A stretch of DNA of 31,536 nt from an uncultured archaeon (GTDB lineage: Archaea; Altiarchaeota; Altiarchaeia; IMC4; SCGC-AAA252-I15). A program made the position numbers and the translations under genes. Location: contig CAZPLO010000015.1 in assembly GCA_964587725.1 (NCBI GenBank), forward strand, positions 1 through 31,536, read 5' to 3'. Below are positions 7,732-31,443 of this stretch, piece by piece (positions within the stretch are counted from its first letter, which is position 1; the number at the start of each line of letters is the position of its first letter). The notes beneath the pieces are model-generated. The model saw only the letters and a program-made list of their open reading frames with translations, ran no database searches and had not been told where the DNA came from.

Positions 7732-7810
7732 CACAGAAGTATAGGGAGCGGGGGTTTTTTACCGCAAGGCTTTTTAACCCGTTCTCCCAATATAGTTGTC
7801 CGGTGGTTGG

Positions 7811-8008
7811 ATGGATTGCAAACTCATCATCTGCGAGTTGATGAACGAACTCAAGTCGGTTAAGGCAAGCTACTTGGAGGAGCAGCTGAGCTGGCAGGGC
7901 ATCGAGAAAACCGAGATAAGCAGGTCCATCAACATTCTCGTCGAACGCGGCGTCATATACCGCGGCAAAGGCGGGAACCTCGAACTGACCGACCCAGTCA
8001 GCACCTAA
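7811..8008 (+). CDS. Small stand-alone winged-helix protein (resembles the MCM C-terminal wH)
   Basis: 65 aa, GIEKTEISRSINILVERGVIYRGKGGNL helix-wing pattern. GGTGG precedes the ATG, and the ORF fills the nurA-topA gap. Confidence 0.65.
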   Translation: MDCKLIICELMNELKSVKASYLEEQLSWQGIEKTEISRSINILVERGVIYRGKGGNLELTDPVST

Positions 8009-14739: not shown

Positions 14740-15831
14740 CTAGCGTTGCTCCAGGAATTTTTTGAACGCACCCCGTATGCTCTGGTCGTGGAACACCAGT
14801 TCCGTGTGGGGGTACGCTATCGTCACCTTCCCACGGTTTTCAGGTAGGTTGAATGACTCCAGTATCTTGGATGAGATGTCCGACCGGACCGCGCGTTTCT
14901 TGTTGGCGCGGCAGATGTACTTCACATCCAACACCACCGACGAGTCCGCGAACTTGGTGTAGATGTGGGGTTCCTCAGACAGCTCAGCCTCCTGCGGCGT
15001 CCCATAGAGGTAGGGGCGCATCCGCTCCACCGCCTTCCTCATCGACTCACCCAAGACATCCAGCGAAGCCTTCCGCACCAGCTCGCGGGCCAACGCCACG
15101 TCGCTTTCATACGTAACAGCCACGGACACGTAATCCCATACGTAGGGGAAGTCGCTGGTGTAGTTGAGTATCGGCTCCGTCAGGATGATGTTGTTGGGTA
15201 TGGTAATCTTCACCCCCGTGGGGTCGTCGCCCTGCATCTCCCTGCCGAACTCCCGCAACACAGTGTAGAACGCCGTTATTTCGGCGACGTCGCCGCGGAT
15301 GTCGCGGACCACGATGCGGTCGCCCACCTTATACGGCCTCTTATACAGTATAACCAGCCACCCCACCACAGACGTAATAGGCTGCTGCAACGCAATCGCC
15401 ACCCCAGCGGAAAACACGCCGATGGATATGCCCAGGGACTGGATGTGGCCCGTGAACTGCGCCAGTATAACGAGTATGGCTATGACCCAGACTCCGTAGT
15501 TCCAAGCCCTCAGAAGGATGCTCCTCGACTGGCCGTCTATGAAAAAAAAGAACCTGTTCAACAGCGGCGTGCTCAGCTTCAAAAAAGCGGTCACCACTAT
15601 GATGATGAATATGCTGGCCATGATACTCGACAGCATCCGGACCTGCGCCTCCGAAAGCGACAGCACCCCCAGCTGCACCCCGATTTGGATGACCGCCAGC
15701 AGAAGCACCGAAATAAGGGAGACCACGATGACCCTGGACTGCAGCTTCCCAATCTTGGCCAGGTAGTCGTGGAACAGCTGTTTCTCACGGTCCAACGGTA
15801 TGCCGAGCTTGATTCCCTCCACAAGCTTCAT
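14740..15831 (-). CDS. mscS: Small-conductance mechanosensitive channel
   Basis: GVAIALQQPI, RPYKVGDRI, GDVAEI, ITIPNN, VTYESD, IAYP. Confidence 0.92.
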   Translation of the reverse strand: MKLVEGIKLGIPLDREKQLFHDYLAKIGKLQSRVIVVSLISVLLLAVIQIGVQLGVLSLSEAQVRMLSSIMASIFIIIVVTAFLKLSTPLLNRFFFFIDGQSRSILLRAWNYGVWVIAILVILAQFTGHIQSLGISIGVFSAGVAIALQQPITSVVGWLVILYKRPYKVGDRIVVRDIRGDVAEITAFYTVLREFGREMQGDDPTGVKITIPNNIILTEPILNYTSDFPYVWDYVSVAVTYESDVALARELVRKASLDVLGESMRKAVERMRPYLYGTPQEAELSEEPHIYTKFADSSVVLDVKYICRANKKRAVRSDISSKILESFNLPENRGKVTIAYPHTELVFHDQSIRGAFKKFLEQR

Positions 15832-15854
15832 ATCCTTAGAATATGCGAGCCGGA

Positions 15855-15867
15855 TTTATTATATAAG
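15855..15867. promoter_or_regulatory. Palindromic TATA element shared by divergent mscS and gcvT
   Basis: TTATATAA at 15859-15866 lies about 28 nt from the mscS ATG and about 32 nt from the gcvT ATG. Confidence 0.5.
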
Positions 15868-15897
15868 GCAGTTAATACTATACACCGGAGGCGACAG

Positions 15898-17034
15898 ATG
15901 ACTGTTAAGAAAACACCCCTCCACGAAATCCACGTTCAGGCAGGCGCGAGGATGGTGGACTTCCACGGGTGGGAGATGCCCGTCCAATACGCAGGAGTGG
16001 TCGGGGAACACAGGCAGGTCCGGGAACACGCCGGACTGTTCGATGTCTCACACATGGGGGAGATACTTGTTTTCGGCTCCAAGGCGACGGAATACGTCAA
16101 CCACCTCGTCACAAACGACGTCGCCTCGGCAGAGGAGGGACAGTGCGTGTACACGCCCATGTGCAACGAAGACGGAGGCGTAATCGACGACCTCCTCGTG
16201 TACAAATACAACAGCGGACACTACATGCTGGTGGTGAACGCCGGCAACGCGGAAAAGGATTTGGAGTGGATTAAGAGTAGGGTGAAGGACGTCGCGGATG
16301 ACGTGGGAAAGAGGGCGTGCGAGCCGGACGACGAAAACCACGAGGCGGAGTTGTGCGTGAGGGACGTCGGCGAGAACACCGCCTTGATTGCGCTCCAGGG
16401 CCCGGAGTCGGAGGCGATGCTGCAGAAGCTCACAGACTACGACCTCTCAGGACTTAATGGGTTCCGTTTCAAGGAGGACATTACGCTGGCGGGCGATGTC
16501 AAAGCGTTGGTGTCGAGAACCGGGTATACGGGGGAGGAAGGGTTCGAAATCTACGTCAACGACGAAGACGCCGTGGACGCGTGGAAGGCTGTCGCGGAGG
16601 CGGGCGCGAAGCCGGCGGGATTGGGTGCGAGGGACACGCTCCGGCTGGAGGCGGGATTGATGCTCTACGGCAACGACCTCACCGAATACACAACACCCAT
16701 GGAGGCAGCCATATCCTGGACGGTGAAGCTCGGCAAGAAGGAGTTCATAGGCAAGGACGAGCTGCTGCGGCAGCATGCCGACGGCGTCGGAAAAAAGATG
16801 GCGGGGTTCGAGCTACTGGAAAAGGGGGTGCCCAGGAAAGACTACAGGATAGAGTTGGACGGCGACGAAGTGGGGTATGTGACGTCCGGCACCATGTCGC
16901 CGACGCTTGGGAAAGGCATTGGGCTGGGGTACGTGAAGCCCGAGTACGCTGAAGCAGGGATAATATTCGACGTAGTGATAAGGGACACGGCATATAAAGC
17001 CAGAGTCGTTGAAATACCATTCTACAGAAGGTGA
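15898..17034 (+). CDS. gcvT: Glycine cleavage system T protein (aminomethyltransferase)
   Basis: KTPLH, GWEMPVQY, GLFDVSHMG, SRTGYTGEEGFE, GLGARDTLRLEAG. GGAGG SD precedes the ATG at 15898. Confidence 0.97.
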   Translation: MTVKKTPLHEIHVQAGARMVDFHGWEMPVQYAGVVGEHRQVREHAGLFDVSHMGEILVFGSKATEYVNHLVTNDVASAEEGQCVYTPMCNEDGGVIDDLLVYKYNSGHYMLVVNAGNAEKDLEWIKSRVKDVADDVGKRACEPDDENHEAELCVRDVGENTALIALQGPESEAMLQKLTDYDLSGLNGFRFKEDITLAGDVKALVSRTGYTGEEGFEIYVNDEDAVDAWKAVAEAGAKPAGLGARDTLRLEAGLMLYGNDLTEYTTPMEAAISWTVKLGKKEFIGKDELLRQHADGVGKKMAGFELLEKGVPRKDYRIELDGDEVGYVTSGTMSPTLGKGIGLGYVKPEYAEAGIIFDVVIRDTAYKARVVEIPFYRR

Positions 17035-17039
17035 AGACA

Positions 17040-17426
17040 ATGAAGTATCCGGATGAACTCAGGTACACGAAGGAACACGAGTGGGTGAAGGTCGACGGTG
17101 ACACAGCCACCGTCGGCGTAACAGACTACGCGCAGGACGCCCTTGGGGATGTCGTGTTCGTGGAGCTGCCGAACCCCGGAGACAATGCGGAGAAGGGCAA
17201 GGGCGTGGCGGTGGTGGAGTCCGTGAAGTCGGTGTCGGACGTCTACGCCCCCTTGGACGGGGAGGTGGGTGAAGTCAACGAGAAACTCGCCGACAGCCCG
17301 GAGCTGGTGAACAAGAGCCCGTACGGGGACGGGTGGATGTTCAAGCTGAAGGTGAAGAACCCCTCCGACGCGGAAGACCTAATGTCCGCGGACGAATACC
17401 AATCGTATGTGGCGGAGAAGCAATGA
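17040..17426 (+). CDS. gcvH: Glycine cleavage system H protein
   Basis: YTKEHEW, GVTDYAQDALGD, lipoyl-Lys motif VESVKSVSDVYAP, PYGDGW. AGGTGA SD precedes the ATG at 17040. Confidence 0.97.
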   Translation: MKYPDELRYTKEHEWVKVDGDTATVGVTDYAQDALGDVVFVELPNPGDNAEKGKGVAVVESVKSVSDVYAPLDGEVGEVNEKLADSPELVNKSPYGDGWMFKLKVKNPSDAEDLMSADEYQSYVAEKQ

Positions 17427-18673
17427 GGTATACATCCAGCAGCCCAGGCGAACGGGCGGAGATGCTGGAGTACCTCGGAGCCGAAGACGTCGGGGAACTC
17501 TACTCGGACGTCCCAGACGGCATACTGTTGGAGAAACTGGAGTTGCCTGATGGGTTGAGCGAGCAGATGGTGTGGGGGCACATGAGCTCCCTAGCCGGGG
17601 AGAACGAGACGCCCGTGTCCTTCCTCGGCGCAGGATACTACAGACATTACATACCTGCTGCGGTGGATGAAATCATCTCACGCAGCGAATTCTACACTTC
17701 GTATACGCCGTATCAGGCGGAGGTCAGCCAGGGCGTCCTCCAGGCATTGTTCGAGTACCAGAGCATGATGTGCGAGCTCACCGGGCAGGAAGTCTGCAAC
17801 GCCACCATGTACGACGGCTCCACCGCGTTGGCTGAGGCCGCGGTGATGGCGCATAGGATAAACGGCAAAGAGAGGATAGTGGTATCGGATACGCTGCACC
17901 CCCACTACATACAGGTGCTCAAAACATACTGTGAGGCGGGCGACCTCACGTTGGAGGTTGCGGATTCAGAAGACGGTATGTCCCAGCTGAAGGCGGACGA
18001 CCAAACATCCGCAGTCGTTGTTCAGACACCCAACTACTACGGCATACTGGAGAATGTTGGAAGCTATAAGGATGTCGTGTCCATTGCATGCATAGTGGAG
18101 CCGACGTCGCTTGGGCTGGTGAAACCCCCCAAGGCGGATATCACTGTCGGCGAAGGACAGGCGTTCGGCAACCCCGTCTCATACGGGGGGCCGTCGCTGG
18201 GCATATTCGCGTCCAAGATGAAGTATGTGCGGGATATGCCCGGCCGCCTGGTGGGTGAAACAGTCGACGAAGACGGCAGAAGAGGTTTTGCGCTGACGCT
18301 GCAGGCGCGGGAACAGCACATAAGAAGGGAGAAGGCGACGTCGAACATCTGCACGTCGCAGAGCCTCTGCGGCATAGCCGCCGCAGTACACCTCGCATTA
18401 TTGGGGCCGGAGGGGCTGAAGCGGGTTGCGCTGAGGAGTCACTTGAACGCAGTGTACTTGATGGAGAAGCTGTCCAGAATCAAGGGTTTCAAGCTGAGGT
18501 ATGATAAGCCGTTCTACAACGAGTTCCTCATGGACTGCCCCGACGGCACAGCAGACAGAATACGGGATGCGGGGGTGACGCCGGGCCTGGAAGTCGACGG
18601 CGGCATGCTGTTCTGCACCACCGAACTCCAGGGGAGAGAAGACCTGGACCGGGTGGCGGAGGTGCTTCGGTGA
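17423..18673 (+). CDS. gcvPA: Glycine decarboxylase P protein subunit 1
   Basis: [49 protein letters not shown] overlap with gcvH. Confidence 0.97.
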
Positions 18674-20109
18674 AGACGCTGAAGGAACTGAGCGTTCCCG
18701 GAAGGGCCGGGGTTCTCCCGCCGGAGCCCGACGTTGACGTCGAACCCGGAATACCTGATGGCATAAAACGTACAGACATTAGTCTCCCGGAGCTTTCAGC
18801 CGTTGACGTCGTCAGGCATTACACGAACTTGAGCAAACTCAACTACGGGGTCGACACCGGAGTCTACCCGCTCGGCTCATGCACGATGAAATACAACCCA
18901 AAGGTCAGTGAGAAGGCTGTGCGTCTGCCTGGGTTCGCGGACATACACCCCATGCAATCCAGTGAACAGGTGCAGGGGGTGTTGAAGGTGATGCACGACC
19001 TCGAAAGAATGCTTTGTGAGGTAACGGGCATGGACGCGTACACCCTGCAGCCCGCCGCAGGAGCCCACGGGGAGCTCACGGGCATAATGCTGATTAAGGC
19101 GTACTTCAAAGACAGAGGCGAAAAACGGGGTAAGATTATCGTGCCAGACAGCAGCCACGGCACCAACCCCGCGTCCGCAGCATACTGCGGATACGACGTC
19201 ATAGTCACGGAGTCCGACGAAAAAGGAGACCTGGACCTCGACGACCTCCGCGAACACATGACCGGGGACGTCGCCGGACTGATGCTGACGAACCCCAACA
19301 CCCTGGGACTGTTCGACGAAAACATATGCGAGATAACCGAGGTAGTGCATGAAAGAGGAGGTCTCGTGTATTATGACGGCGCGAACATGAACGCGATAAT
19401 GGGTTGGGCGCGGCCCGGCGACATGGGCTACGACATCGTGCACCTGAACCTGCACAAGACGTTCGCGACGCCCCACGGCGGCGGCGGACCCGGTTCGGGG
19501 CCCGTGGGCGTGAACGGGCGGCTGGAGCCGTTTCTGCCGGTTCCCAGGGTGGTGGAGGAAGACGGCGTCTACCGCCTGGATGACGGCAGGCCTAAAAGCA
19601 TCGGCAGGGTGAGAGCGGCCTGCGGCAATTTTGGAGTGATGGTGCGGGCCTACGCCTACATGAAGGCTTTGGGCGGGCCGGGGCTGCGGGATGCGAGCGC
19701 GCAGGCGGTGTTGAACGCCAACTACCTCAAGGAGCGGCTGAAGAAACACTACGACCTCCCCTATGACAGGACGTGCATGCACGAGTTCGTGCTGTCAGGG
19801 AGAAGGCAGGCACACGAACACGGCGTACACACACTCGACATCGCCAAACGACTGTTGGATTATGGAGTCCACGCACCCACCATCTATTTCCCGTTGATTG
19901 TGGAGGAGGCGATGATGATAGAGCCTACGGAAACGGAGGGCAAGGCTACGCTGGACGAATTCGCGGACATCATGATAAAGATTTCTGGGGAGTGTGAGGA
20001 AGAGCCGGATGTTGTGAAGACTGCGCCGCACGACACGCCGGTGCGCCGGTTAGACGACACCCTCGCCGCCAGGAAGCCGGTGCTGCAGTGGAACCAGGTG
20101 AGAACGTGA
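18670..20109 (+). CDS. gcvPB: Glycine decarboxylase P protein subunit 2
   Basis: [30 protein letters not shown]-Lys motif [26 protein letters not shown]. Confidence 0.97.
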
Positions 20110-20942
20110 AGCCGGACTGGCTTAAGGTGAGGGTCGGCGGCGAAGGCGACTTCGCACGCGTGAAAAAGGTCCTGGAGAAGCACGGCCTGCGCACAGTATG
20201 TGAGGAGGCCCGCTGCCCCAACCGGGGGGAGTGCTGGGGCGCGGGAACAGCAACGTTCATGATACTCGGCAGCGTGTGCACGAGGAACTGCGGTTTCTGC
20301 GCCGTGAAAAACGGCAGTGAAGGAGAATCTGTCGAGGGCGATGAACCGCAGCGTCTAGCCGACGCGGTGAGGGAGCTGGGCCTCGAATACGTGGTGTTGA
20401 CTTCCGTGGACCGTGATGACCTGCCGGACAAGGGCGCCGGCCATTATGCAGACTGCATACGGGCGGTGAAGGGGACGGGCGCGAAGGTTGAGGCGCTGAT
20501 ACCCGACTACGTCGGCAGTGAACTGAGGGCTGTGGTGAAGGCGGGGCCGGACGTATTAGCCCACAACCTGGAGGTTGTGCGGCGGCTGCAGCACATCCGG
20601 GATGGTAGGACCTCCTATGACGGGAGCCTGCGGACCCTGGCGGAGGCGAAGATGCTCGACGAAGAATTGAAGACCAAATCCTCTATCATGCTGGGGTTGG
20701 GTGAAACCAGATGGGATGTGCTGTCCGCCATGGACGACCTGCGGTCGGTGGACTGCGACATCCTCGTCCTAGGCCAGTATTTGCAGCCGACGAAACAGCA
20801 GGTGCCTGCGGAGGAATACGTGACGCCGGAACAGTTCAGGGAATACGGAGAGATAGCGTTGGAGAAGGGGTTCAAGGAGGTGGTGTCCGAACCCCTGGCG
20901 AGAACCAGCTACCACGCCGCAGACACCTTGAAGAATTTATAG
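20106..20942 (+). CDS. lipA: Lipoyl synthase
   Basis: [12 protein letters not shown], radical [33 protein letters not shown] overlap with gcvPB. Confidence 0.97.
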
Positions 20943-20981
20943 CTTTCATTTAAAAATTAAACGGAAGATATGAAACGTTGG

Positions 20982-21146
20982 TCATAACCGTATCTTCACC
21001 ATCGCCTGCAGGTACGCCAGGGCGACGGTGAGCCACCCGATTATCTGGTACGGCCAGTCCGTGTAGAACACGACCATGAACCCCACCAGGAACAACGCCA
21101 GCCCCGACGGTGTGCAGAGGGGGCAGCCGGGGCCCGCGCACACCAT
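20982..21146 (-). CDS. Small 2-TM membrane protein with an N-terminal Cx4Cx2C motif
   Basis: MVCAGPGCPLCTP followed by two hydrophobic helices, 54 aa. AT-rich promoter-like sequence upstream. ATG at 21176 is an alternative start. Confidence 0.6.
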   Translation of the reverse strand: MVCAGPGCPLCTPSGLALFLVGFMVVFYTDWPYQIIGWLTVALAYLQAMVKIRL

Positions 21147-21224
21147 TATATTGCTGGATTTAGATATTTCATTCATTTCTTAGTTTATAATATGTTTCTG
21201 CCATATGGTTATATAGAGGTTAAA

Positions 21225-21473
21225 ATGTCCGAGGTTTTAGTCAACATACACATTGAGGAGCTGGACGGTGGTGGATATCTCGCCACAAGCGATAGTGTCC
21301 GGGGGTTGGTGGCTCAGGGTAGGACTATAACCGAGACTTTGTAGATAGCCCGTGACGTAGCCCGAAAACTCATAGAGTCTTGTATTGAATGCGGTGACCC
21401 ACTGCCGGTCTCAAAGAATAAAAAAGGCAGTAAGTTCATCCACGATATGGAGATTCCCGTAGCCGTCGGATGA
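21225..21473 (+). pseudogene. hicB: HicB-family antitoxin with an in-frame amber stop at codon 40
   Basis: MSEVLVNIHIEELDGGGYLATSDSVRGLVAQGRTITETL*IARDVARKLIESCIECGDPLP... with TAG at 21342-21344. GAGGT SD upstream. The frame continues to a TGA that overlaps the hicA ATG. Confidence 0.88.
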
Positions 21474-21700
21474 TGACCCGTTTAACATCCCACACCGCCT
21501 CCGACGTTATAAAGAAACGTAAGAAAGCAGGGTTTGTATTCGACCGCCAGGCAAAGGGGAGCCATGAGATATGGTATAACCCTGTTACAAAAGATAGGAC
21601 AACCGTCCCGAACCACCCTGGGAAAAACCTACACGTCAAAACATTAAGCGCGATAATCAAACAAGCAGGCCTGACAACCAAGGAATTCATGGAACTGTAA
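21470..21700 (+). CDS. hicA: HicA-family mRNA interferase toxin
   Basis: KAGFVFDRQAKGSHEIW...TTVPNHPG...TLSAIIKQAGL. Confidence 0.92.
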   Translation: MMTRLTSHTASDVIKKRKKAGFVFDRQAKGSHEIWYNPVTKDRTTVPNHPGKNLHVKTLSAIIKQAGLTTKEFMEL

Positions 21701-21702
21701 CT

Positions 21703-21810
21703 TCATTCCTCTTCTTCCCCGTCGTCGAGGCCTTCCCCTATTTCTTCTACGCCTTTTTTGGTGAGTAGGGTGGCTGCTATGCCGCCTAAGACACCCCATG
21801 GACCTGCCAT
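21703..21810 (-). CDS. Possible 35-aa microprotein or gene remnant
   Basis: MAGPWGVLGGIAATLLTKKGVEEIGEGLDDGEEEE, with an AT-rich divergent spacer upstream. Confidence 0.3.
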   Translation of the reverse strand: MAGPWGVLGGIAATLLTKKGVEEIGEGLDDGEEEE

Positions 21811-21838
21811 GTATAATAACAGTGGATATAATACTAAA

Positions 21839-22108
21839 ATGATGATTGGGCGGACGGTGCGGAAGGTTCCGGGGGGGAAGCTGCTGAAGGTGACCGTGGA
21901 ATATGAAGGCATTGCATTAAAGTCTGTGAGGGTTAACGGGGACTTCTTCGCCCACCCCGAAGACGGGATAGAACGGCTTGAGAAGAGATTAGCGGGCGTG
22001 AAGGTGGAGGACGTCGACGGGGTTGTGACGGAGTCGCTGGAAGACGTGGAACTATACGGGGTTGACGTCCGGTCGATAACGGACGCAATCCTGGAGGCTG
22101 CAGGGTGA
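21839..22108 (+). CDS. Lipoate-protein ligase accessory subunit (stand-alone C-terminal domain, LplB-like)
   Basis: RKVPGGKLLKV...VNGDFFAHPEDGIERLEKRLAG. Overlaps the lplA start. Confidence 0.87.
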   Translation: MMIGRTVRKVPGGKLLKVTVEYEGIALKSVRVNGDFFAHPEDGIERLEKRLAGVKVEDVDGVVTESLEDVELYGVDVRSITDAILEAAG

Positions 22109-22857
22109 ATGCGAGGTTCCTCGACACCGGATATGGCAGCGCGTACTTTAACATGGGGTTGGATGAGAGCGTGTTAAAGCATGTGAGCGAAGGGAAAAGT
22201 CCGGCGACGCTGCGGTTCTACGCGTGGAAGCCGCCGGCGGTGTCGATAGGTTACTTCCAGAGCCTCGCGGATGAAGTGGATGAGGGCGCATGCCGGAGCA
22301 GGGGAGTGGATGTTGTGCGGCGGATGACAGGAGGCGGCGCAGTATACCACGACCGTGAATTAACGTACAGTTACATAGCGCCGGAAGACACGGCGCCCGA
22401 CGACATACTCGAAAGCTACAGGCTCATATGCGGGGGACTGGTGGAAGGATTCAAACTGTTGGGCGTGGACGCCGGGTTCGCGCCGTTGAACGACATCGTC
22501 ACAGGAGGTAAAAAAATCAGCGGGAACGCGCAGACCCGGAAAATGAAGTGCGTGCTGCAGCACGGCACCGTACTGTTGGGTGTGGACGCGAAGGAAATGT
22601 TCACGCTGTTGAAGGTTCCCAGCGAAAAAATCAGGGACAAGATGATAGCGGCTGTGGAGGAGCGGGTGACTTCCGTGGAGGACGTTTTAAACCAGGAAAC
22701 ATCATACAGTAAGGCGGCGGCGGCCTTCAGAAAAGGTTTTGAACGGGCTCTGGGGCTGGAGTTAGATGACTCGGAGCCCATGGACAGTGAAGTGGGGCTG
22801 GCGGAGGAATTGGCTTCAAACAAGTATTCGACTGCGGAGTGGAACAATAGAAGATGA
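22105..22857 (+). CDS. lplA: Lipoate-protein ligase A family catalytic subunit
   Basis: NMGLDE, LRFYAW, SIGYFQ, RRMTGGGAVYHD, KKISGNAQ, LQHGT. Confidence 0.92.
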   Translation: MNARFLDTGYGSAYFNMGLDESVLKHVSEGKSPATLRFYAWKPPAVSIGYFQSLADEVDEGACRSRGVDVVRRMTGGGAVYHDRELTYSYIAPEDTAPDDILESYRLICGGLVEGFKLLGVDAGFAPLNDIVTGGKKISGNAQTRKMKCVLQHGTVLLGVDAKEMFTLLKVPSEKIRDKMIAAVEERVTSVEDVLNQETSYSKAAAAFRKGFERALGLELDDSEPMDSEVGLAEELASNKYSTAEWNNRR

Positions 22858-24167
22858 AATACGACGCGGTTGTGGTGGGCGGGGGCCCCGGAGGCTATGA
22901 GGCGGCATTGCAGGTGGCGCGGCTCGGCGGAAAAGCGGCTGTCGTAGAAAAGGATTCAGTGGGGGGCGTCTGCACCAACCGGGGGTGCATACCCACCAAG
23001 GCGTTGGCCGCCGCCTGCGAGGCATATGACACGGTCTCACGGGCGGGGCGGCTCGGCGTGAAAGCTGAGGCGGAGCCGGACGTCCAGGCCATGTTCAAGC
23101 ACAGGGACCGCGTGTCCGCGGTGATGCGGAAGGGCGTTGAGAAGCTGCTGGAGGACGCCGGCGTCGAAGTCGTTGCTGGAACCGGCAGCCTGAAGTCCGC
23201 CCACGAAGTAGAGGTGGGGGGCAGAATCCTGGAGGCGAAGAACATTGTCGTGGCGACGGGGTCGGAGCCCACGGGACTGCCTGGGATTGAGATAGACCAC
23301 GAGTACGTTATCTCCGGAGACGACGCCGCGGTCGCCACAGAGGCTCCAGGGAAGGTTGTCATAGTAGGCGGCGGGTTCATAGGGTGCGAGTACGCGGGAA
23401 TCTACGGGAGGCTCGGGTGTGAGGTCACGTTGGCTGAGGCGCTTCCGAGGGTACTGGCGGCGGAAGACGATGATGTTTCGGAGACGGTCCACAGGATGCT
23501 GTCTAAGCACGTGAAGATAGTGACCGACACCAAGGTCGGGTCGGTGGACAAGGAGAAGATGACCGTCGACGTCGGCGGAGAACAGGTGGATGCGGATGTC
23601 GTATTGCTGGCTGTGGGGAGGAAGCCCGTGTTCCCCGACGGACTGGACAGGGTGGGCGTGGTGCACGGCCGCGACGGGATACGGGTTGATTCGCACATGA
23701 GGACTTCAGTGGACAACATATACGCAGTCGGTGACGTGGCGGAGGGGTTGAACCTCGCGCACGTAGCATACGCCGGAGCGGAAACGGCGGCGGGTAACAT
23801 CATGGGCGGAGACGCTGAAGCAGACTTCATGACCGTGCCGTGGTGCGTGTTCACCCTCCCCGAAGTCGGGAGGGTGGGGGTTACGGAACGGGACGCGGAA
23901 GGAGACGTGAGGGTTGGGCGCTCAGACTACATTGGAAACGGGAAAGCCAGGTGCATGAGGGAGCGGGACGGATTCTGCAAGGTCATAGTGGACGAGTCCG
24001 GAGCCATAGTGGGCGTCCACATGATAGGCGCTCACGCGTCCGACCTCATAGGGGAGGCGACACTGGCTGTGAAGCATAAGCTGACCGCCCGGCAGGTGGC
24101 GGATACCATACACCCGCATCCCACGTTGACCGAAGTGTTCAGGGAGGCGTGCACGCAACTAAGGTGA
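22854..24167 (+). CDS. lpdA: Dihydrolipoamide dehydrogenase (GCS L protein)
   Basis: GGGPGGY, redox disulfide GGVCTNRGCIP, GGGFIGCE, LAHVA, HPHPTLTE. Confidence 0.95.
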   Translation: MKYDAVVVGGGPGGYEAALQVARLGGKAAVVEKDSVGGVCTNRGCIPTKALAAACEAYDTVSRAGRLGVKAEAEPDVQAMFKHRDRVSAVMRKGVEKLLEDAGVEVVAGTGSLKSAHEVEVGGRILEAKNIVVATGSEPTGLPGIEIDHEYVISGDDAAVATEAPGKVVIVGGGFIGCEYAGIYGRLGCEVTLAEALPRVLAAEDDDVSETVHRMLSKHVKIVTDTKVGSVDKEKMTVDVGGEQVDADVVLLAVGRKPVFPDGLDRVGVVHGRDGIRVDSHMRTSVDNIYAVGDVAEGLNLAHVAYAGAETAAGNIMGGDAEADFMTVPWCVFTLPEVGRVGVTERDAEGDVRVGRSDYIGNGKARCMRERDGFCKVIVDESGAIVGVHMIGAHASDLIGEATLAVKHKLTARQVADTIHPHPTLTEVFREACTQLR

Positions 24168-25247: not shown

Positions 25248-25778
25248 CTATTTCCTTAAAGAATCAACCGCCTTCAGTGCCACCGCCGTCATCTCCGGTA
25301 TGTTGAATGTGCCGGTGTTCAACACCAGGTCATATGCTGTGAGGTCGCTTAAGTCTATGTCGTAGTATTCGAGGTAGCGTCTGCGTTCGCTGCCGTCGCG
25401 GGCCAGTATGTCTTCCCTGGCTTCCTCGACGCTCCCGTATTCTTCCCCCCGTTCGAGCACGCGGGCTGCGCGGACGTCAGCAGGCGCCGTCAGCCAGATG
25501 CTCAAGTCCGGGCCTAGGAAATACCTAGACAGGCGGCCGTCCACGACGCAGTCTCCAGTGGCGGCTTTCTTCTGCCGCTCATCTATTTCGCGGTCGACTT
25601 CCGGATGTTCCTCGGCGTACTTTGAGAACTCCAACAGCGTCAACCCCTGTTCGGCGGCCATGTCCCGCATGACCTTGCCGGCTGACAGATGGGTGAATCC
25701 TAGTTCGTCCGCCAGCGCCTTGGCTAGCGTCGACTTCCCCGATGCTGCTGAGCCGCCGACCGTGACTATCATCTTCAC
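25248..25778 (-). CDS. cmk: Archaeal cytidylate kinase
   Basis: P-loop GSAASGKST, SAGKVMR, DREIDERQ, DGRLS, RYLEYYDID. Confidence 0.93.
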   Translation of the reverse strand: MKMIVTVGGSAASGKSTLAKALADELGFTHLSAGKVMRDMAAEQGLTLLEFSKYAEEHPEVDREIDERQKKAATGDCVVDGRLSRYFLGPDLSIWLTAPADVRAARVLERGEEYGSVEEAREDILARDGSERRRYLEYYDIDLSDLTAYDLVLNTGTFNIPEMTAVALKAVDSLRK

Positions 25779-26206
25779 TCGGACTTCTTTTTAGCCTTCT
25801 TCTTGGGTCTGCTTTTGGGCTTGGACTTCCTCACCTTCCCGGACGACACCTCACCCCACCATCCCCGGGGCAGGTACTTTTCCAGGGTGAGGTCGCGTTC
25901 CACCTGAAGGTCGCCGTACTCCGGGACGGAGTGTTTCACCTCCATGCGGGTCACGTACCTTACCAGGGAGTCCAGGCAGTCGGAGCAGAGGGTGCCCGCG
26001 TACGGCCTAGCCGGCAGTTTCCCGCCTTTGGTGAGGTTCCTCACCTGGGAGGGCCTGTCCGATGCGACTCCGGACAGCTTCTTACCGCATCTCCCGCACA
26101 CCGGTTTCCCGTGTTTCTTGCCGCGGAAATGGGTTGCCGTCCCGCCGCCCGGGGTCCTGCGCTTGACCTTCTTAGCAGACCTGCTTCTCTTCCTTGGTTC
26201 AACCAT
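25775..26206 (-). CDS. rpl34e: 50S ribosomal protein L34e with a long C-terminal extension
   Basis: RRTPGG, CGRC, PARPYAGTLCSDC. Conserved position between DUF106 and cmk. GAGGT SD precedes the ATG at 26206. Confidence 0.92.
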   Translation of the reverse strand: MVEPRKRSRSAKKVKRRTPGGGTATHFRGKKHGKPVCGRCGKKLSGVASDRPSQVRNLTKGGKLPARPYAGTLCSDCLDSLVRYVTRMEVKHSVPEYGDLQVERDLTLEKYLPRGWWGEVSSGKVRKSKPKSRPKKKAKKKSE

Positions 26207-26218
26207 CTTCAACCTCTT

Positions 26219-26992
26219 TTACGTGAGACCTAATATTTTGTTGAATATCATCGACGACGCGAACGAGCATATGAAGTAGAACGCGAACCACCCCAGGTTG
26301 AGGCCGAGTAATGTGACCACGTGGTTGGAGCCCGTGTTCCTGACAGACACGCCGTAGCTTATGCCGCCTTCCTCTATCATTCCCCCCGTCTTGTTGACGG
26401 AGACCATGCCTGCGCCGCCGGGCAGCGTATACTGCATGGTTGTTCCGTTGCGGAGCGTGTATTCCACCTCCGTGGGGGAGCGTCTCACATCGTAGTCTGT
26501 GGCGCCGGAAGACAGTCTGACCCCCGCCTCGGCGCCCTCGCCTGCGCCCAGTCGGCTCCAGTTCCACTCCACAGCCCTCTCGGACTCTATGTATCTGCCG
26601 AGTTCGCCTGCGTCGATGTTTGTGAACTCCACCCCCGCGGGCAGGTGGTCTGTGACTGTGACGTTGTATGCGGCGCCGAGTTCCCCGTATGTTCCGCGTA
26701 TCCACCCGAACACGAGGAAGAAGGGTATGATGGTGAATATCATCGGCTTCATGGAGTGCTTCATCTGCTCCATACTGCATGACATCATCTCCTTCTGATG
26801 CTTCTGCATGCCTTTGACGTCCTTCTTCTCCTGAGCCTCCTTGACCCTGGCCTGGCATTCCTTGATTTTCTCCTTGTGCTCGCGGAGCTTCTCCTTGTCC
26901 AACACCACGTGGCGGACGAGGGAGCTCATCAGGGTCATGCCGACCGAAATCAATCCGATGGTCTGTCCGGCCGCCGTTAACTCAAACACCAC
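26219..26992 (-). CDS. DUF106 / EMC3-TMCO1 (Oxa1 superfamily) membrane insertase with an inserted beta domain
   Basis: TM1, coiled coil, MKPMIFTIIPFFLVFGWI, C-terminal LGWFAFYFICSF...KILG. Conserved position after adk. Confidence 0.92.
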   Translation of the reverse strand: MVFELTAAGQTIGLISVGMTLMSSLVRHVVLDKEKLREHKEKIKECQARVKEAQEKKDVKGMQKHQKEMMSCSMEQMKHSMKPMIFTIIPFFLVFGWIRGTYGELGAAYNVTVTDHLPAGVEFTNIDAGELGRYIESERAVEWNWSRLGAGEGAEAGVRLSSGATDYDVRRSPTEVEYTLRNGTTMQYTLPGGAGMVSVNKTGGMIEEGGISYGVSVRNTGSNHVVTLLGLNLGWFAFYFICSFASSMIFNKILGLT

Positions 26993-27581
26993 TTAAACCA
27001 CTCAACACCCCTAAGAGGGTTTCAGCCGCCTGCGGCAGCGTGCCGTCGGGCTTCCATATGACTTTTATCGGCGTCCCCGTGAACACGGAGTACGCCACCG
27101 CTATGCTTCGGTTGACGCTCTGGTGGCGTTCTATGCCTTCGAGGTTGTCTAGTTCACGCCGTCTGAAGTCGTCTCCGATGTCTTTTTTTCTGAATTTGTT
27201 GACGTCCTGCGGCCTGCTCTCCAACACCACGATGACGTCGGGCTTCAGTTCGCGGAGCACCCACTCAGGCATCCCCGGAATGAAACCCAGGGGGGTTTCG
27301 ATGGTGGCGTGCGTGTCCAGGATGAGGTTTCTCTCGTCCGCCTGTTTCCTAATCTCCTGGGCGGCCTTCTTCTGTATATCCCGCTGCTTCTCCACCGGCA
27401 GCGACCGCATCTCGTCGCGGTGTTCCACCAATTTCTCCGCCTGCGCGGCCTTCAGCATCTGGTCTCCGAAGTTCACCAGCTCAAAGTCTATTTCAACGCC
27501 TTTTTCTTCGGCCTTCTCGAACGCCTTCCGCACCACCGTGGACTTCCCCACGCCCGGCACGCCCGTCATGACAACCAACAT
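26982..27581 (-). CDS. adkA: Archaeal adenylate kinase
   Basis: GVPGVGKST, NFGD, HRDEMRSLP, LDTHA, GFIPGMP, HQSVNR. Confidence 0.95.
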   Translation of the reverse strand: MLVVMTGVPGVGKSTVVRKAFEKAEEKGVEIDFELVNFGDQMLKAAQAEKLVEHRDEMRSLPVEKQRDIQKKAAQEIRKQADERNLILDTHATIETPLGFIPGMPEWVLRELKPDVIVVLESRPQDVNKFRKKDIGDDFRRRELDNLEGIERHQSVNRSIAVAYSVFTGTPIKVIWKPDGTLPQAAETLLGVLSGLSGV

Positions 27582-27657: not shown

Positions 27658-30468
27658 CTAGGACTCCCGAATACGCATGCCCACGGATTCGACGAGCTCC
27701 CTCCTCAACTCCTCATTATCGTAGACTCCATGGGTTTGGCGCCGCAGCAGGCTCAGCGCGGCCTGCGCATACTTTTTCCTTTCAGCGCCGTCTTTGACGG
27801 CGGCAACCACGGTGAAGAGCTTCCTGGCTGCGTCCTCGGGTGACGAACGATTGGCCTGCATAGCCCACTCACTCTCTTCTATTTCGTCGTAGGACATGCC
27901 GTTACCGCTGTGTTTTTCTCCGTCCCTGCCGACGAATTGCTGCTCGTGCATGTTCCTAATCCACACAGCAGCATCCCCTCCATCAAGGGACTGGTTTATC
28001 AGCTCAGCCCGCCTGTCCTCGCTCGGCGACGACATGGTGTGCATCAGTGCGAGCCTGCGCCTGGCCTTCTCCTCGTCGGACATTTTCTCACCGGCCAGCG
28101 ACCGGAACCGCTCCCTCTCCTGTTTGTTGAATGTGCGCCCCAGTCTCTTGTCCAACATGTCCGACGCCAGTTTCGCGTACTCCCGTTGCGCATCCGGGTC
28201 TTCAACAGCCGTGACACGGTCGAGTACGAGTTCGGCGGGGGATTTGCCTTCTTCACCCGCTTTATTATTCAGGTTACCCATCAGCTCATCCTCCATTTGT
28301 TCGAACGTCTTCGACACGGCTCTGCCGGCGGGTGTTTCGGGCTGCGACAGCCCCCGGTTAATCCATTCATCCGCCGGATTGCCTTCGGAGGAGTTCATGA
28401 TGGCCTGTACCTCTCCAGAATCGCTTGACACCGCCGCATACAACAGCCTTATGCGCTTCCTAGCCGTCTCCTCGTCGGACGTCTCTTCCCTGCGTTCCCG
28501 CGGTTGTGGTGATTCCTCGGTTTCGGCGGGCGCCTTCTCAGCCGCCTTTTTTGGGGGGTACAGGTGTTCTAGCAGCTGCTTGGCAGGGTCTAAGTACTTT
28601 TCCCGGGTCTCACCGGATTCCTTGAGCACGGGATTAACTGCCTTGGCGTATCCACTGCGTGAGCCTGTTTTTTCCAGGAAATCCTGTATTTCACGGTCTT
28701 TCAGTGAGTCGGTGGACACGCCTCCAACGTCGGATGGCGGTGTTTTGCCGGACGCTACCGCCTTCACCAGCGCAATCATCCTACGGCCCCGCTCCGCTAC
28801 CTCAGGATTTTCAGAGAGCAGCTGGCGCGTAAGATAGAGGCTTAACACCCTCTCTCCATCGGACTGTTTTGATGCCGGCTTCTGCTTTGCGGCGGGCTCC
28901 TCTGCTTCGGAGTGGGTTTCTACGCGGGGACCTTCTCCCTCATCTATTTCCGTTGGGCCGCCGACCGCGCCTGTAGACGGTTTTCCTCCTTCGGTTTCCT
29001 CTATTTTTTGGCCTGTGAGCTTCGACCAGTTTCTCTCGATAATCTGTTTCTCCCGCCTGGAGTAGTATAGTTTGCCTTCGTCCAGTTTCTCCTTGGCTCT
29101 CTCCGCCTCCGCCTTTGCATCCTCACCAGGCCCGTATTTTTTCTCGAACACGCTGAGGTTGTGGTGTAGTACCGCGTTGTCGCCGTATAATCTGATGGAG
29201 TCGCCCAGGTAACCTCTGATCTTCTTCGCTTGTTCCTCGTCCAGTACACCGCCTTCTTCAGCACCGTGTCTGGTGTTGTATGCGAGCTGACCGAGTGAAA
29301 CAGCCTGCAGGCGTCTGTTGCCGGTTTGGACTGCCACATTGGTTGCAGCGATCGAATACCCTGTTTCGTATTTTCCGCCCCTCGCCCGAGCCACCGCCTT
29401 TATGTGACATCCCTGTGCAAGTGAGTTCATGACCTCATCCGAGTTGCCGCGGAAGTCTATTTCCTTGGACTCACGGGCTTCTTTGAGTATCTCATCGCCG
29501 GACCCTCCCGCACGCCCTATGAGGGAGTCGGCGAGCTGTTCAGCCTCGTTAAGCAGCGCACTTCTCCCGTCCCCCTTTTCGCCCGCCGCCGCCTCCAGCA
29601 GCGCCTTAGCGTATGAGTTGGCGAACAAGTAGACCTCCCGCTCCGCATTCGCCCGCCGACCTTCATCCCCGCCCGCCAGGTCATCCACCATGCGGTTGAA
29701 GACTATCAACCCGTCTTCGCCACGGTAGCTGTCAGCCATCTCGCGGGAGGCTTTAATGGCTTCGGTGAAGTTGTCTTCCGTCAGCAGCGACCTCCCCAGC
29801 AGACGTCTGCCTTTGAAATCCTCCAGGGACGTGAGGGATGCTCCCGCACGCCTCTCACCTTCGGGGGAGACCTCCTCTTCAGCGGCTTCACCCGGCTTCG
29901 GAGCCTCAGCGGGGGCTGGTTCCTTTTCTGCTGGCTGTTCTTCCCCCATCCGCGCTCCCACATCAACCGGCTTAGGCAACTCATCACCCTTAGCCCTTCT
30001 CCTGACATCAACGAGGGTTTTCTTCACCGCCGAATCAACTTGAGTGAACTCTTCCCCTCTGTTTACGAGGATGGATGTTTCTTCGGAGTCCAGGCCGGGG
30101 CTCGTGAGTTGATCGTTGAGTGTGCCCAACACCTGGGTTTTACCGTCTCTCACGATGCCGACGTGGAGTGTCCTGTCCTCCGGGTCGGCGGCCGCCTGAC
30201 CCAGCCTGCGCGTTTCGAATAATTCCTCTGCAAGCTTCGGATTCTGTGAGACATCAACAGACAGTTGGGGGCCTGACGCACTCGCCGACGTTATCCTGCT
30301 GCCGGGTTTAAGCTGCCCAGGGTCTTTGATTTCCTTGCCAACCAACCCGTACATGCTGCCGCCGTCAAAGACGGCCAAGGCCATGTTGGGGTCGGCTGCT
30401 ATTTTAAGAAAGCTCTCCCTCTGCTCAGGCGTTAGAGCCTGCCTGGCTGCTGCCTTCTCGACTGCCAT
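27658..30468 (-). CDS. Large charged alpha-helical hypothetical protein with TPR-like middle and three C-terminal repeats of about 130 aa
   Basis: Long open frame with Glu/Lys/Ala-rich composition and Pro/Glu linkers. Likely start is MAVEKAAARQ at 30468, as the sequence upstream is AT-rich. Confidence 0.8.
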   Translation of the reverse strand: MAVEKAAARQALTPEQRESFLKIAADPNMALAVFDGGSMYGLVGKEIKDPGQLKPGSRITSASASGPQLSVDVSQNPKLAEELFETRRLGQAAADPEDRTLHVGIVRDGKTQVLGTLNDQLTSPGLDSEETSILVNRGEEFTQVDSAVKKTLVDVRRRAKGDELPKPVDVGARMGEEQPAEKEPAPAEAPKPGEAAEEEVSPEGERRAGASLTSLEDFKGRRLLGRSLLTEDNFTEAIKASREMADSYRGEDGLIVFNRMVDDLAGGDEGRRANAEREVYLFANSYAKALLEAAAGEKGDGRSALLNEAEQLADSLIGRAGGSGDEILKEARESKEIDFRGNSDEVMNSLAQGCHIKAVARARGGKYETGYSIAATNVAVQTGNRRLQAVSLGQLAYNTRHGAEEGGVLDEEQAKKIRGYLGDSIRLYGDNAVLHHNLSVFEKKYGPGEDAKAEAERAKEKLDEGKLYYSRREKQIIERNWSKLTGQKIEETEGGKPSTGAVGGPTEIDEGEGPRVETHSEAEEPAAKQKPASKQSDGERVLSLYLTRQLLSENPEVAERGRRMIALVKAVASGKTPPSDVGGVSTDSLKDREIQDFLEKTGSRSGYAKAVNPVLKESGETREKYLDPAKQLLEHLYPPKKAAEKAPAETEESPQPRERREETSDEETARKRIRLLYAAVSSDSGEVQAIMNSSEGNPADEWINRGLSQPETPAGRAVSKTFEQMEDELMGNLNNKAGEEGKSPAELVLDRVTAVEDPDAQREYAKLASDMLDKRLGRTFNKQERERFRSLAGEKMSDEEKARRRLALMHTMSSPSEDRRAELINQSLDGGDAAVWIRNMHEQQFVGRDGEKHSGNGMSYDEIEESEWAMQANRSSPEDAARKLFTVVAAVKDGAERKKYAQAALSLLRRQTHGVYDNEELRRELVESVGMRIRES

Positions 30469-30540
30469 CGTCTTATTAGAATACGGTATTTCGGCCTTAA
30501 ATACTGTTGAAAACGCAAAAAACCAGTGGTTGAACAATGT

Positions 30541-31443
30541 TTAAATTGTTTTTAAATCATATGCTCCCAGGTATCCGCAGTTGAGGCTGTCCTTGTCCCG
30601 CACCGAATCCGGGAGGCCGCAGATTATGTGCGCACCCGCTTTCTTGTGCAGGCCGACGCCCCAGTCGCCGCCTTCCTCCATCGTCCGTCGGAGGTAACGG
30701 TTCAGGGTCGGAGCCCGCACCACCCCATGGTCCCTGAACTCATTGGCTGCTTCATCGTCGGCGCCTAAACCGGGGACTCTGCCGTAGACGAACACATAGG
30801 GTACCCTGACCCGGTCCCGGTAGTATCGTAGGACGCCTGCGAGTAGCTTCTGTGACAAACCTATGCCCCGCACATCCTCTCTCACCAACGCGAGAAGCAG
30901 GAAACCCACACCCCTGCCGGGCTTCAACGGACCCTCTGCCAGGTTCTCTATTTCGGTGAACCCCCTGAACCGGTGGGGGGAGTTGGGGGACATGACAGCC
31001 GCCGTCAACTCGTCCATCGAGTATTTATCCTCGGCCTCAAGCAGTCCCGCAAAGTATTCCTGGGGGTAGACGAACGTCTGCTTCGACGAGTTAACGGCCG
31101 TAACCGAGTCAGACTTCACCAGTATCTCTTGGTCGGGGGTCATCACATCCCCTCCCATGTAACGTAGGAGCGCGAACCTCATGGGGACGGTCTTCATCCG
31201 CTCAACCATCGCGGCGGATATGCTCTGCTGGAAAACCCTGGAACCGGATTCGGGGCGCCTGCCGTATCTCAGCCGGATGTATTCACCGAGTTTATCACCC
31301 AAACCGGACTGTCCCGGCTCCAGCACCTCCACATCAAGGCTTCCGCGTATGTGGTCGCCCGCATCCCGCAGGCCGCCGGTGAAGTAAACAGGCTCGGGAG
31401 GTTCCTGACCGCCCTGCCGGAAACCCCTGCGCAGCTTAGACAT
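30541..31443 (-). CDS. GNAT-fold protein (YkwB / PKS GNAT_L-like)
   Basis: Acyl-CoA-binding motif A VREDVRGIGLSQKLL, then YGRVPG and GLHKKAGAHIICGLP...DKDSLNCGYLGAYDL. Confidence 0.75.
   Translation of the reverse strand: MSKLRRGFRQGGQEPPEPVYFTGGLRDAGDHIRGSLDVEVLEPGQSGLGDKLGEYIRLRYGRRPESGSRVFQQSISAAMVERMKTVPMRFALLRYMGGDVMTPDQEILVKSDSVTAVNSSKQTFVYPQEYFAGLLEAEDKYSMDELTAAVMSPNSPHRFRGFTEIENLAEGPLKPGRGVGFLLLALVREDVRGIGLSQKLLAGVLRYYRDRVRVPYVFVYGRVPGLGADDEAANEFRDHGVVRAPTLNRYLRRTMEEGGDWGVGLHKKAGAHIICGLPDSVRDKDSLNCGYLGAYDLKTI

Follow-up and report, generated by a model that had tools for sequence, protein, structure and literature searches.

An Oxa1-superfamily insertase of the Altiarchaeota with a predicted, circularly permuted DUF11-type domain in its extracytoplasmic h4h5 element

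Archaeal Ylp1/DUF106 proteins, exemplified by Mj0480 of M. jannaschii (PDB 5C8J), belong to the EMC3/TMCO1/GET1 branch of the Oxa1 superfamily. PMC5868721 demonstrates the topology of the superfamily in YidC and Mj0480 and maps it onto members of the endoplasmic reticulum (ER); ribosome binding and insertase activity are shown there in vitro for Mj0480 alone. The h4h5 element is described as hypervariable: it forms a transmembrane (TM) hairpin in bacteria and lies outside the cytoplasm in eukaryotes and archaea, as a short helix in the archaeal Ylp1 proteins described so far (PMC8675477). Here, we report a DUF106/Ylp1 (EMC3_TMCO1, Oxa1-superfamily) insertase gene at positions 26219..26992 (−) of a 31,536-nucleotide contig from an uncultured archaeon of the Altiarchaeota (CAZPLO010000015.1 of GenBank assembly GCA_964587725.1; this whole stretch is called the window below). 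At h4h5, its product carries a predicted β-sandwich of 116 amino acids (aa), which appears to be a circularly permuted relative of the DUF11 repeats of giant surface proteins.

The window protein shares with the described archaeal Ylp1 proteins the PF01956 family, the N-out/C-in topology and the adk-DUF106-L34e-cmk gene neighbourhood, but differs from them in having this domain instead of the short helix. The TM3/4 hairpin of bacterial YidC occupies the same h4h5 element, but consists of two membrane helices rather than a soluble domain. The P1 domain of diderm YidC is likewise an extracytoplasmic β-sandwich on an insertase and a lineage-specific elaboration; its likeness to the insert is one of role only. 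P1 lies between TM1 and TM2 of E. coli YidC, before the core, is about three times larger and shows no sign of homology to the insert, which stands between core TM2 and TM3 and not between an N-terminal anchor helix and the first core helix. P1 is largely dispensable for insertion by YidC. The lumenal Ig-like or β-sandwich domains of TRAP-beta and the EMC, beside eukaryotic translocons and insertases, are also found on the non-cytoplasmic side of insertion machinery, but they belong to separate subunits with their own anchors, whereas the window domain is part of the insertase chain.

The 257-aa product of the open reading frame (ORF), whose GTG start overlaps the end of adk, matches PF01956 (EMC3_TMCO1, formerly DUF106) with 67 bits, above the curated Pfam cut-off of 27.1, and is thereby a member of that family. 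The match falls into two stretches. The first covers residues 14–103 (profile positions 21–113 of 169, E 2.2e-18), and the second lies beyond the insert. An insert of 116 aa between TM2 and TM3 had been proposed from the letters alone, in what we call the sequence-only reading. The interval 26327..26674 (−) indeed translates to the residues quoted there, AAYNVTVTDHLPAGVEF...ISYGVSVRNTGS (residues 107–222), and its delimitation as a domain is based on sequence comparison, the AlphaFold2 (AF2) fold and its absence from positional orthologs. Relatives lacking the insert run, for example, GEYGSAGTVATLF across the TM2–TM3 junction, the whole proteins being only 141–150 aa long. That reading had also held a short loop to be normal for archaeal DUF106. 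This stands within the phylum, to which our survey applies, where insert-less positional orthologs have 0–9 residues at the site.

Pfam DUF11 matched the insert over residues 107–159 (profile positions 32–81 of 114), with 24.0 bits in the whole protein and 25.6 bits for the insert alone, on either side of the cut-off of 24.6; TIGR01451 scored 20.5 bits, below 24. A profile built from six full-length relatives was then searched against 1.84 billion representative proteins and gave 3408 matches at E ≤ 0.001. Among the 150 matches listed, about 30 were DUF106 proteins of 245–309 aa and about 116 were giants of 800–7264 aa. In the giants, the profile section of approximately 106–224 matched repeatedly, in up to 41 stretches, with overall E values down to 1e-144, and Pfam identifies five of them as tandem arrays of DUF11 (E 7e-60 to 4e-202). 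Together, the repeated profile matches and the Pfam arrays indicate, at the level of sequence, that the insert is homologous to DUF11 repeats, beyond what chance would give. When the inserts were compared by hhalign with a profile made from 400 repeats of arrays confirmed by Pfam, the probability reached 98.1%. The insert and the DUF11 (PF01345)/CARDB repeats have in common the motifs V-x-K-T, Y-x-I-x-V-x-N-x-G and A-x-N-V-x-V-x-D-x-L-P-x-G, the tryptophan and G-E. They differ in arrangement: the repeats of the giants stand in tandem after a signal peptide, whereas the window insert is a single copy with swapped parts inside a membrane hairpin, flanked by TM2 and TM3, and not a tandem repeat of a secreted or surface protein. 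Pfam TRAP_beta also matches DUF11 giants (E 1.5e-28 on P0120), which points to a related fold class. Sequence searches of solved structures gave a best E of 0.27 for the insert (antibody chains) and no match at E ≤ 0.01 for a DUF11 giant, and the ESM Atlas gave no usable match.

In DUF11 repeats, V-x-K-T and Y-x-I-x-V-x-N-x-G precede A-x-N-V-x-V-x-D-x-L-P-x-G. The sequence-only reading had held that these halves are swapped in the insert, with the break at the N-x-G/A-x-N-V turn, and the canonical order is indeed not the one found. For the comparison, we built a hidden Markov model (HMM) in the canonical register from 2132 repeats of 116 giants. By this local HMM and by hhalign, the beginning of the insert falls at canonical position ~30, in strand C, and its end at ~28, in strand B. 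The break lies within N-T-G/x-x-A-x-N-V, at most 2–3 canonical positions being missing. The first part of the insert, residues 107–190 (26423..26674, −), corresponds to canonical DUF11 positions ~31–113 (strands C–G) and includes the sequons N110, N144 and N182. Within this part, the AF2 model of the insert places strands at model residues 4–12, 19–23, 28–31, 36–44, 49–58, 70–75 and 81–86. The last part, residues 197–219 (26336..26404, −), corresponds to canonical positions ~2–28 (strands A and B; V-x-V-N-K-T ... I-S-Y-G-V-S-V-R-N), includes the sequon N200 and has strands at model residues 93–103 and 106–115.

In its native order, the window insert matched the canonical HMM in two pieces, HMM positions 31–86 on insert positions 1–58 (33.3 bits) and HMM positions 15–28 on insert positions 102–115 (1.5 bits), with a total of 39.2 bits. 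When the parts were re-ordered, the score rose to 49.7 bits in a single continuous match (HMM 15–87), as had been anticipated from the swap. Re-ordering raised the score in 33/33 inserts of the same type (type 1), by 2.5–12.2 bits. Six inserts of other types scored at most 14.6 bits in either order; with all types taken together, 37 of the 39 scored higher when re-ordered. Scanning the cut point through 14 inserts gave a plateau maximum at cuts 68–96 (for 12 of the 14 at 84–96, just before the V-x-K-T strand) and minima within the first 40 residues. Comparisons of profiles gave the same picture. By hhalign, an alignment of 22 inserts matched the single canonical profile over query positions 1–76 (template 30–102; 98.1%, score 74), and, colinearly, the canonical profile written twice in succession over query positions 1–118 (template 30–141 of 226; 98.6%, E 7.3e-16, score 93.5). 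The same swapped-order behaviour was seen in the f5 genomes and in a further group of six proteins. Correspondingly, in the giant P0047 the Pfam DUF11 profile (positions 1–113) matches residues 197–310, while the insert HMM matches residues 230–344 and thus runs into the next repeat. A single family profile is thus matched by both parts of the insert, with their order reversed, and the whole insert is colinear with a tandem duplicate of that profile, which is the arrangement of a circular permutant.

Type I and type II C2 domains are classical circular permutants among β-sandwiches. The insert has in common with such permutants, as explained by the "permutation by duplication" model, the same fold with shifted ends and an origin best explained as a window of a tandem duplicate. 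It differs in that the permutation is coupled to insertion into another protein, the new ends being attached to two membrane helices.

The sequence-only reading had expected the insert to fold as one domain. We modelled residues 105–224 with AF2 from an alignment of 30 insertases that contained no giants, and obtained a β-sandwich-like domain of nine strands with a mean predicted local distance difference test score (pLDDT) of 92.9 and a predicted template modelling score (pTM) of 0.86. The permuted sequence is thus predicted to form one compact domain. In such a fold, the new chain ends would be adjacent, at the former B–C turn. A Foldseek search of the PDB with the insert model gave nothing at E ≤ 1e-3. 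The best VIA-wide match (Z 6.2, rmsd 2.5 over 84 residues) was to mu-homology subdomains, followed by pilin, cohesin and Ig-like sandwiches with Z of 4–5.6. Of the 50 VIA-wide rows listed, 35 extend no further than model residue 105 and do not reach the last strand. Since both aligners are sequential, matches of this kind are what a permuted sandwich might give, its final hairpin lacking a counterpart in sequence order, although they are not proof of it. With a model of the whole protein, Foldseek returned nothing at E ≤ 1e-3, and the VIA-wide output was filled by coiled-coil matches to residues 22–89.

The insert had further been placed outside the cytoplasm, and this location is well supported by the published Oxa1 topology, by an excess of sequons in the inserts and by the basic loop of residues 30–83. 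In the window protein, this loop holds 15 lysine and arginine residues, and the insert is net acidic. The 45 inserts contain 165 N-x-S/T sequons (2.98 per 100 aa), compared with 68.1 expected from shuffled sequences, a 2.4-fold excess; the cores contain 14 (0.21 per 100 aa). Of the four sequons in the window insert (N110, N144, N182 and N200), that at N110 is present in 6/6 close relatives and that at N182 in 5/6. From these sequence patterns, we infer that the insert may be N-glycosylated. In Ca. Altiarchaeum hamiconexum, two membranes enclose a periplasm of ~32 nm (PMC4460559). If the present organism has two membranes in the same way, the insert would be periplasmic.

The distribution of the insert was followed in 61 genomes of the phylum, which were sorted by match coverage, ORF length and extracted sequences. 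An insert of >100 aa is present at the TM2–TM3 site in 25 of them, and 0–9 residues are found there in 28. In the remainder, the DUF106 gene is cut by contig ends (two genomes), gives only a weak match (one) or has no match (five). Orthologs in the adk-DUF106-L34e(-cmk) context have either an insert of >100 aa or 0–9 residues. All relatives that carry a source name are assigned to Candidatus Altiarchaeales, Altiarchaeota or Ca. Altarchaeum. One genome, from the window's own genus, contains both forms (L046, G051:C10); its second DUF106 copy is insert-less and 146–171 aa long. Neither adk nor L34e nor cmk was found within the 1.6 kb around this short copy, which places it outside the operon context. 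A paralog, a foreign gene and contamination are all conceivable; the genome is listed at 2% contamination.

That the insert was acquired, as the sequence-only reading had it, is supported by the positional orthologs that lack it in the same gene context. The adenylate kinase of some insert-less genera is 70–79% identical to that of the window, and that of insert-bearing genera 78–84%. The best explanation for the source of the domain is descent from DUF11/CARDB-type repeats of giant cell-surface proteins. Giants with DUF11 arrays are present in several genomes of the phylum; in that of the window, DUF11 gives no more than four matches, all of them weak and one in the insertase gene. The simplest origin would be copying from mid-repeat to mid-repeat of a tandem DUF11 gene. 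A segment of the array that begins with strand C in one repeat and closes with strand B in the following one would have been copied out of register, and a single copy captured in this way would as a result be a circular permutant, with its ends at the old B–C turn, where they could join TM2 and TM3 directly.

The later history of the insert was examined on a tree of the core only (72 rows, 141 columns, quick method), from which the fragments P0056, P0097, P0017, P0141, L012, L020 and L025 were left out. The tree is weakly resolved, with 14/67 inner branches starred. On the best core tree, the insert character changes 12 times, and at least two of these changes are forced by well-supported branches. 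Because all type-1 inserts share site, order and homology, a history of several clean losses, or of whole alleles being exchanged, looks somewhat more probable than one of multiple gains.

The window's genome (48 contigs, 92% complete) contains a single PF01956 match and no match to bacterial-type YidC (PF02096), so that the gene encodes the only Oxa1-superfamily insertase detected in this genome. The anatomy, an insertase with a permuted insert, we consider highly probable. The fuller explanation, in which the sole insertase carries a captured, permuted and outward-facing DUF11 domain as an accessory module, is in our view probable, with less assurance. The domain would be seated over the outer end of the insertase groove, directly after a helix that lines the hydrophilic groove. 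There, it might act as a dispensable accessory module that receives or shields translocated segments of substrates, or that contacts partners in the envelope or the translocon. The insert should be dispensable for the core reaction, because orthologs lack it, and these natural insert-less orthologs suggest an accessory role. By analogy with known systems, namely P1 of diderm YidC and the lumenal domains of TRAP and the EMC, which would be comparable in role and not in ancestry, such functions are conceivable, but any specific statement on what the insert does is tentative and rather doubtful. This applies equally to the chaperoning of surface proteins or pilins that the sequence-only reading had suggested, which we treat as conjecture.

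Several observations weigh against this explanation. The Pfam DUF11 score is marginal, that of the whole protein falling just short of the cut-off. The three-dimensional claim relies on a predicted model, fold searches with which gave middling matches at most, and the membrane part of the whole-protein model has low confidence (pLDDT 38–66), which makes any seating of the domain on the core conjectural. The receiving or shielding role is drawn by analogy. Finally, the insert diverges faster than the core (24–39% vs 41–55% identity to the nearest five relatives), and its losses or gains have recurred among close relatives. These last two features would also fit the main rival explanation, a tolerated passenger: a fragment of a repeat gene, lodged in a permissive loop, that has no function of its own and is kept or lost neutrally. 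The positional orthologs without insert in sister genera and the number of changes on the core tree point the same way. However, the residues that define the fold are kept in 30 sequences that are only 16–39% identical (W143 is invariant, and P118, Y178 and N219 are present in ≥90%), and the reading frame is intact in 15 genomes of three families. Against a passenger stand also the excess of sequons, with the recurrent positions N110 and N182, and the occurrence of other inserts of folded size in the same loop of two further clades. Taken together, residues, frame, sequons and the other inserts suggest selection for having a domain at this site, and we regard neutral carriage as unlikely, though it deserves to be weighed seriously.

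The other alternatives concern what the insert is rather than what it does. An ordinary, unpermuted DUF11-type repeat would look permuted if the Pfam boundaries were offset and the true domain started at the A-x-N-V-x-V-x-D strand. In favour of this, the insert is colinear with tandem arrays, within which the similarity between repeats cannot tell the register, and the searches for solved DUF11 relatives by sequence found none, so that the domain boundaries are not fixed by a structure. On the other hand, the separately built Pfam models CARDB, DUF7507, DUF7933 and BatD begin where DUF11 does in the giants. The ends of arrays, read with separate A–B and C–G models in 132 arrays of ≥6 elements, likewise imply whole units running from A to G: 92 arrays start with an A–B part and 119 end with a C–G part. 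The 40 arrays that start with C–G include N-terminally truncated proteins, and the short A–B model is also less sensitive. An initial attempt to read the array ends with the insert HMM was replaced by these two models, as local matches were often partial and a 33-residue A–B fragment cannot score alone. Two lines, the shared model starts and the array ends, thus favour the Pfam register as the natural structural unit of DUF11 repeats, as far as sequences can tell, and we think an unpermuted repeat very improbable. A domain swap, in which the A–B hairpin of one insertase completes the C–G half-sandwich of a neighbour and so dimerises or chains the insertase, is conceivable, since a permuted domain composed of two repeat fragments might in theory allow complementation in trans. 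The single chain is, however, compact in the AF2 model (pTM as above), with a pLDDT of 84–90 over the last two strands; the linker is short (residues 191–196), and both chain ends must return to the same membrane hairpin. Swapping therefore seems to us a far-fetched arrangement. An artefact of assembly or gene calling, either a chimeric contig or a fused ORF, might be suspected since the genomes are metagenome-assembled. The long architecture is nevertheless found, at the same site, in the same gene context and uninterrupted by stops, in 25/61 genomes of the phylum, and about 30 independent proteins among the matches listed from the representative library have it at the same site, which makes an artefact wellnigh inconceivable.

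The permuted domain is not the only insert seen at this site. In the clade that includes Ca. Altarchaeum sp. (f8; L043–L045 in G001, G003 and G004; P0092 and P0158–P0167; 271–282 aa), a different insert of ~130 aa lies between TM2 and TM3. It starts with V-N-F-E-M, has conserved cysteines (F-N-C-P ... Y-C-N-S-S) and ends in a V-E-I-T-P-K ... Y-N-F-K-L-x-N-H hairpin. In another class (f9; L036–L042 in G053–G059), stop-to-stop DUF106 ORFs of 278–329 aa have an insert of ~123 aa at the site, with the motifs V-S-Q-L-G-A-D-L-R-N-L … V-W-W-N-V-T-A … I-E-V-T-P-L-Y-K. A further feature of the f9 proteins, missing from the window protein, is a conserved tail at the C-terminus, W-G-H-W-x-G-[VI]-[KR]-H-L-E-K. 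A few representative proteins carry still other inserts at the same site. By hhalign, the f8-type (n = 13) and f9-type (n = 7) inserts scored <10% (f9 <3%) against type 1 and against the single and doubled DUF11 profiles, and they matched no Pfam family at E ≤ 0.1 except for a hint of CBM_2 (E 0.039). They may have diverged beyond recognition or may have been captured independently. A bolder view, which we offer as speculation and consider improbable, is that the h4h5 loop is a hot spot of domain capture in Altiarchaeota. At least three sequence-unrelated modules of 100–160 aa would then serve as convergent periplasmic platforms for a double-membraned archaeon, paralleling P1 on diderm YidC; they would have been lost cleanly many times, and permutation would have been what made a surface repeat insertable.

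A variant of the type-1 architecture was seen in P0031, P0033, P0034, P0036, P0038, P0070 and the partial L020 (G012). These proteins have the permuted DUF11 insert and an extra hydrophobic stretch of 15–40 residues before TM3 (e.g. F-P-I-Y-F-D-F-W-I-F-H-F-H-N-G-F), which may be an added membrane-embedded or interfacial element.

Literature searches on DUF106/Ylp1 insertases, DUF11 permutation and Altiarchaeota YidC returned no account of such an insert. The insertase family and the domain family are each known, and we have not found their union via circular permutation described. The case indicates that a folded domain is tolerated, and in many lineages kept, at the outer end of the substrate groove in the smallest known member of the universal Oxa1/YidC superfamily. 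As positional orthologs with and without the domain occur in natural pairs, what an extracytoplasmic module adds to insertion can be tested directly. The case is also a clean one for protein evolution: an out-of-register repeat window would yield a permutant with adjacent ends, a prerequisite for insertion into a helical hairpin. Engineers might draw on it to display a β-sandwich on a minimal membrane scaffold.

The core around the insert has the three TM helices expected of the family, the first and second being joined by a basic coiled-coil hairpin (AF2 helices 3–30, 33–55, 59–105 and 221–253, the membrane parts with low pLDDT). In the whole-protein AF2 model, which was made from a six-sequence alignment, the mean pLDDT is 68.6, and the insert has values of 73–89. 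TM1 (H1 of the Oxa1 fold; residues ~9–29; 26906..26968, −) is a hydrophobic stretch within AF2 helix 3–30, which has low pLDDT; its boundaries are our reading. It is followed by the Lys/Arg-rich coiled-coil hairpin (H2/H3; residues ~30–83; 26744..26905, −), whose basic residues are counted over 54 positions, whose helices are modelled at 33–55 and 59–105, and which is assigned to the cytosolic side after PMC5868721. TM2 (H4; residues ~84–104; 26681..26743, −) was placed from alignments and ends in the conserved Y-G-x-x-G, the first Pfam match stopping at residue 103. TM3 (H5; residues ~225–248; 26249..26320, −) begins with V-x-T-L-x-G in the alignments and contains W235 and Y239, which are invariant in the alignment columns; AF2 gives helices at 221–228 and 233–253, with low pLDDT.

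Upstream of the insertase gene lies a gene for an archaeal-type adenylate kinase (26982..27581, −; Pfam AAA_17, 2.9e-35); we name it adk as a reading from the conserved archaeal gene order. Downstream are the genes for ribosomal protein L34e (25775..26212, −; PF01199, 6e-18) and cytidylate kinase (cmk; 25248..25778, −; Cytidylate_kin2, 1.5e-27). According to tblastn searches with the three neighbouring proteins, the adk-DUF106-L34e-cmk order is kept across the phylum at most of the loci of 45 relatives. In many archaea, secY stands upstream of adk. In the window, this position is taken by an acidic ORF of 959 aa (27658–30537, −), preceded by an ORF of 300 aa (30541–31443, −); neither has a Pfam match at E ≤ 1e-5.

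Elsewhere in the window, the region 14965–24167 (+) holds a glycine-cleavage/lipoylation cluster that looks complete, with GcvT, the alpha and beta parts of GcvP, lipoyl synthase, lipoate-protein ligase and dihydrolipoyl dehydrogenase. In the 689-aa ORF of GcvT, the GCV_T domain begins only at residue 319, so that either ~318 leading residues have no assignment or the start has been called too early. Positions 21001–22000 have a G+C content of 0.50, compared with 0.56–0.64 elsewhere, and contain short ORFs only. Scans for Rfam families and tRNAs found none in the window. Finally, a gene for a NurA nuclease (341 aa) lies near one for a type IA topoisomerase of 673 aa that has a single zinc ribbon, at 6709–10026 (−), a region that looks like ordinary archaeal housekeeping.

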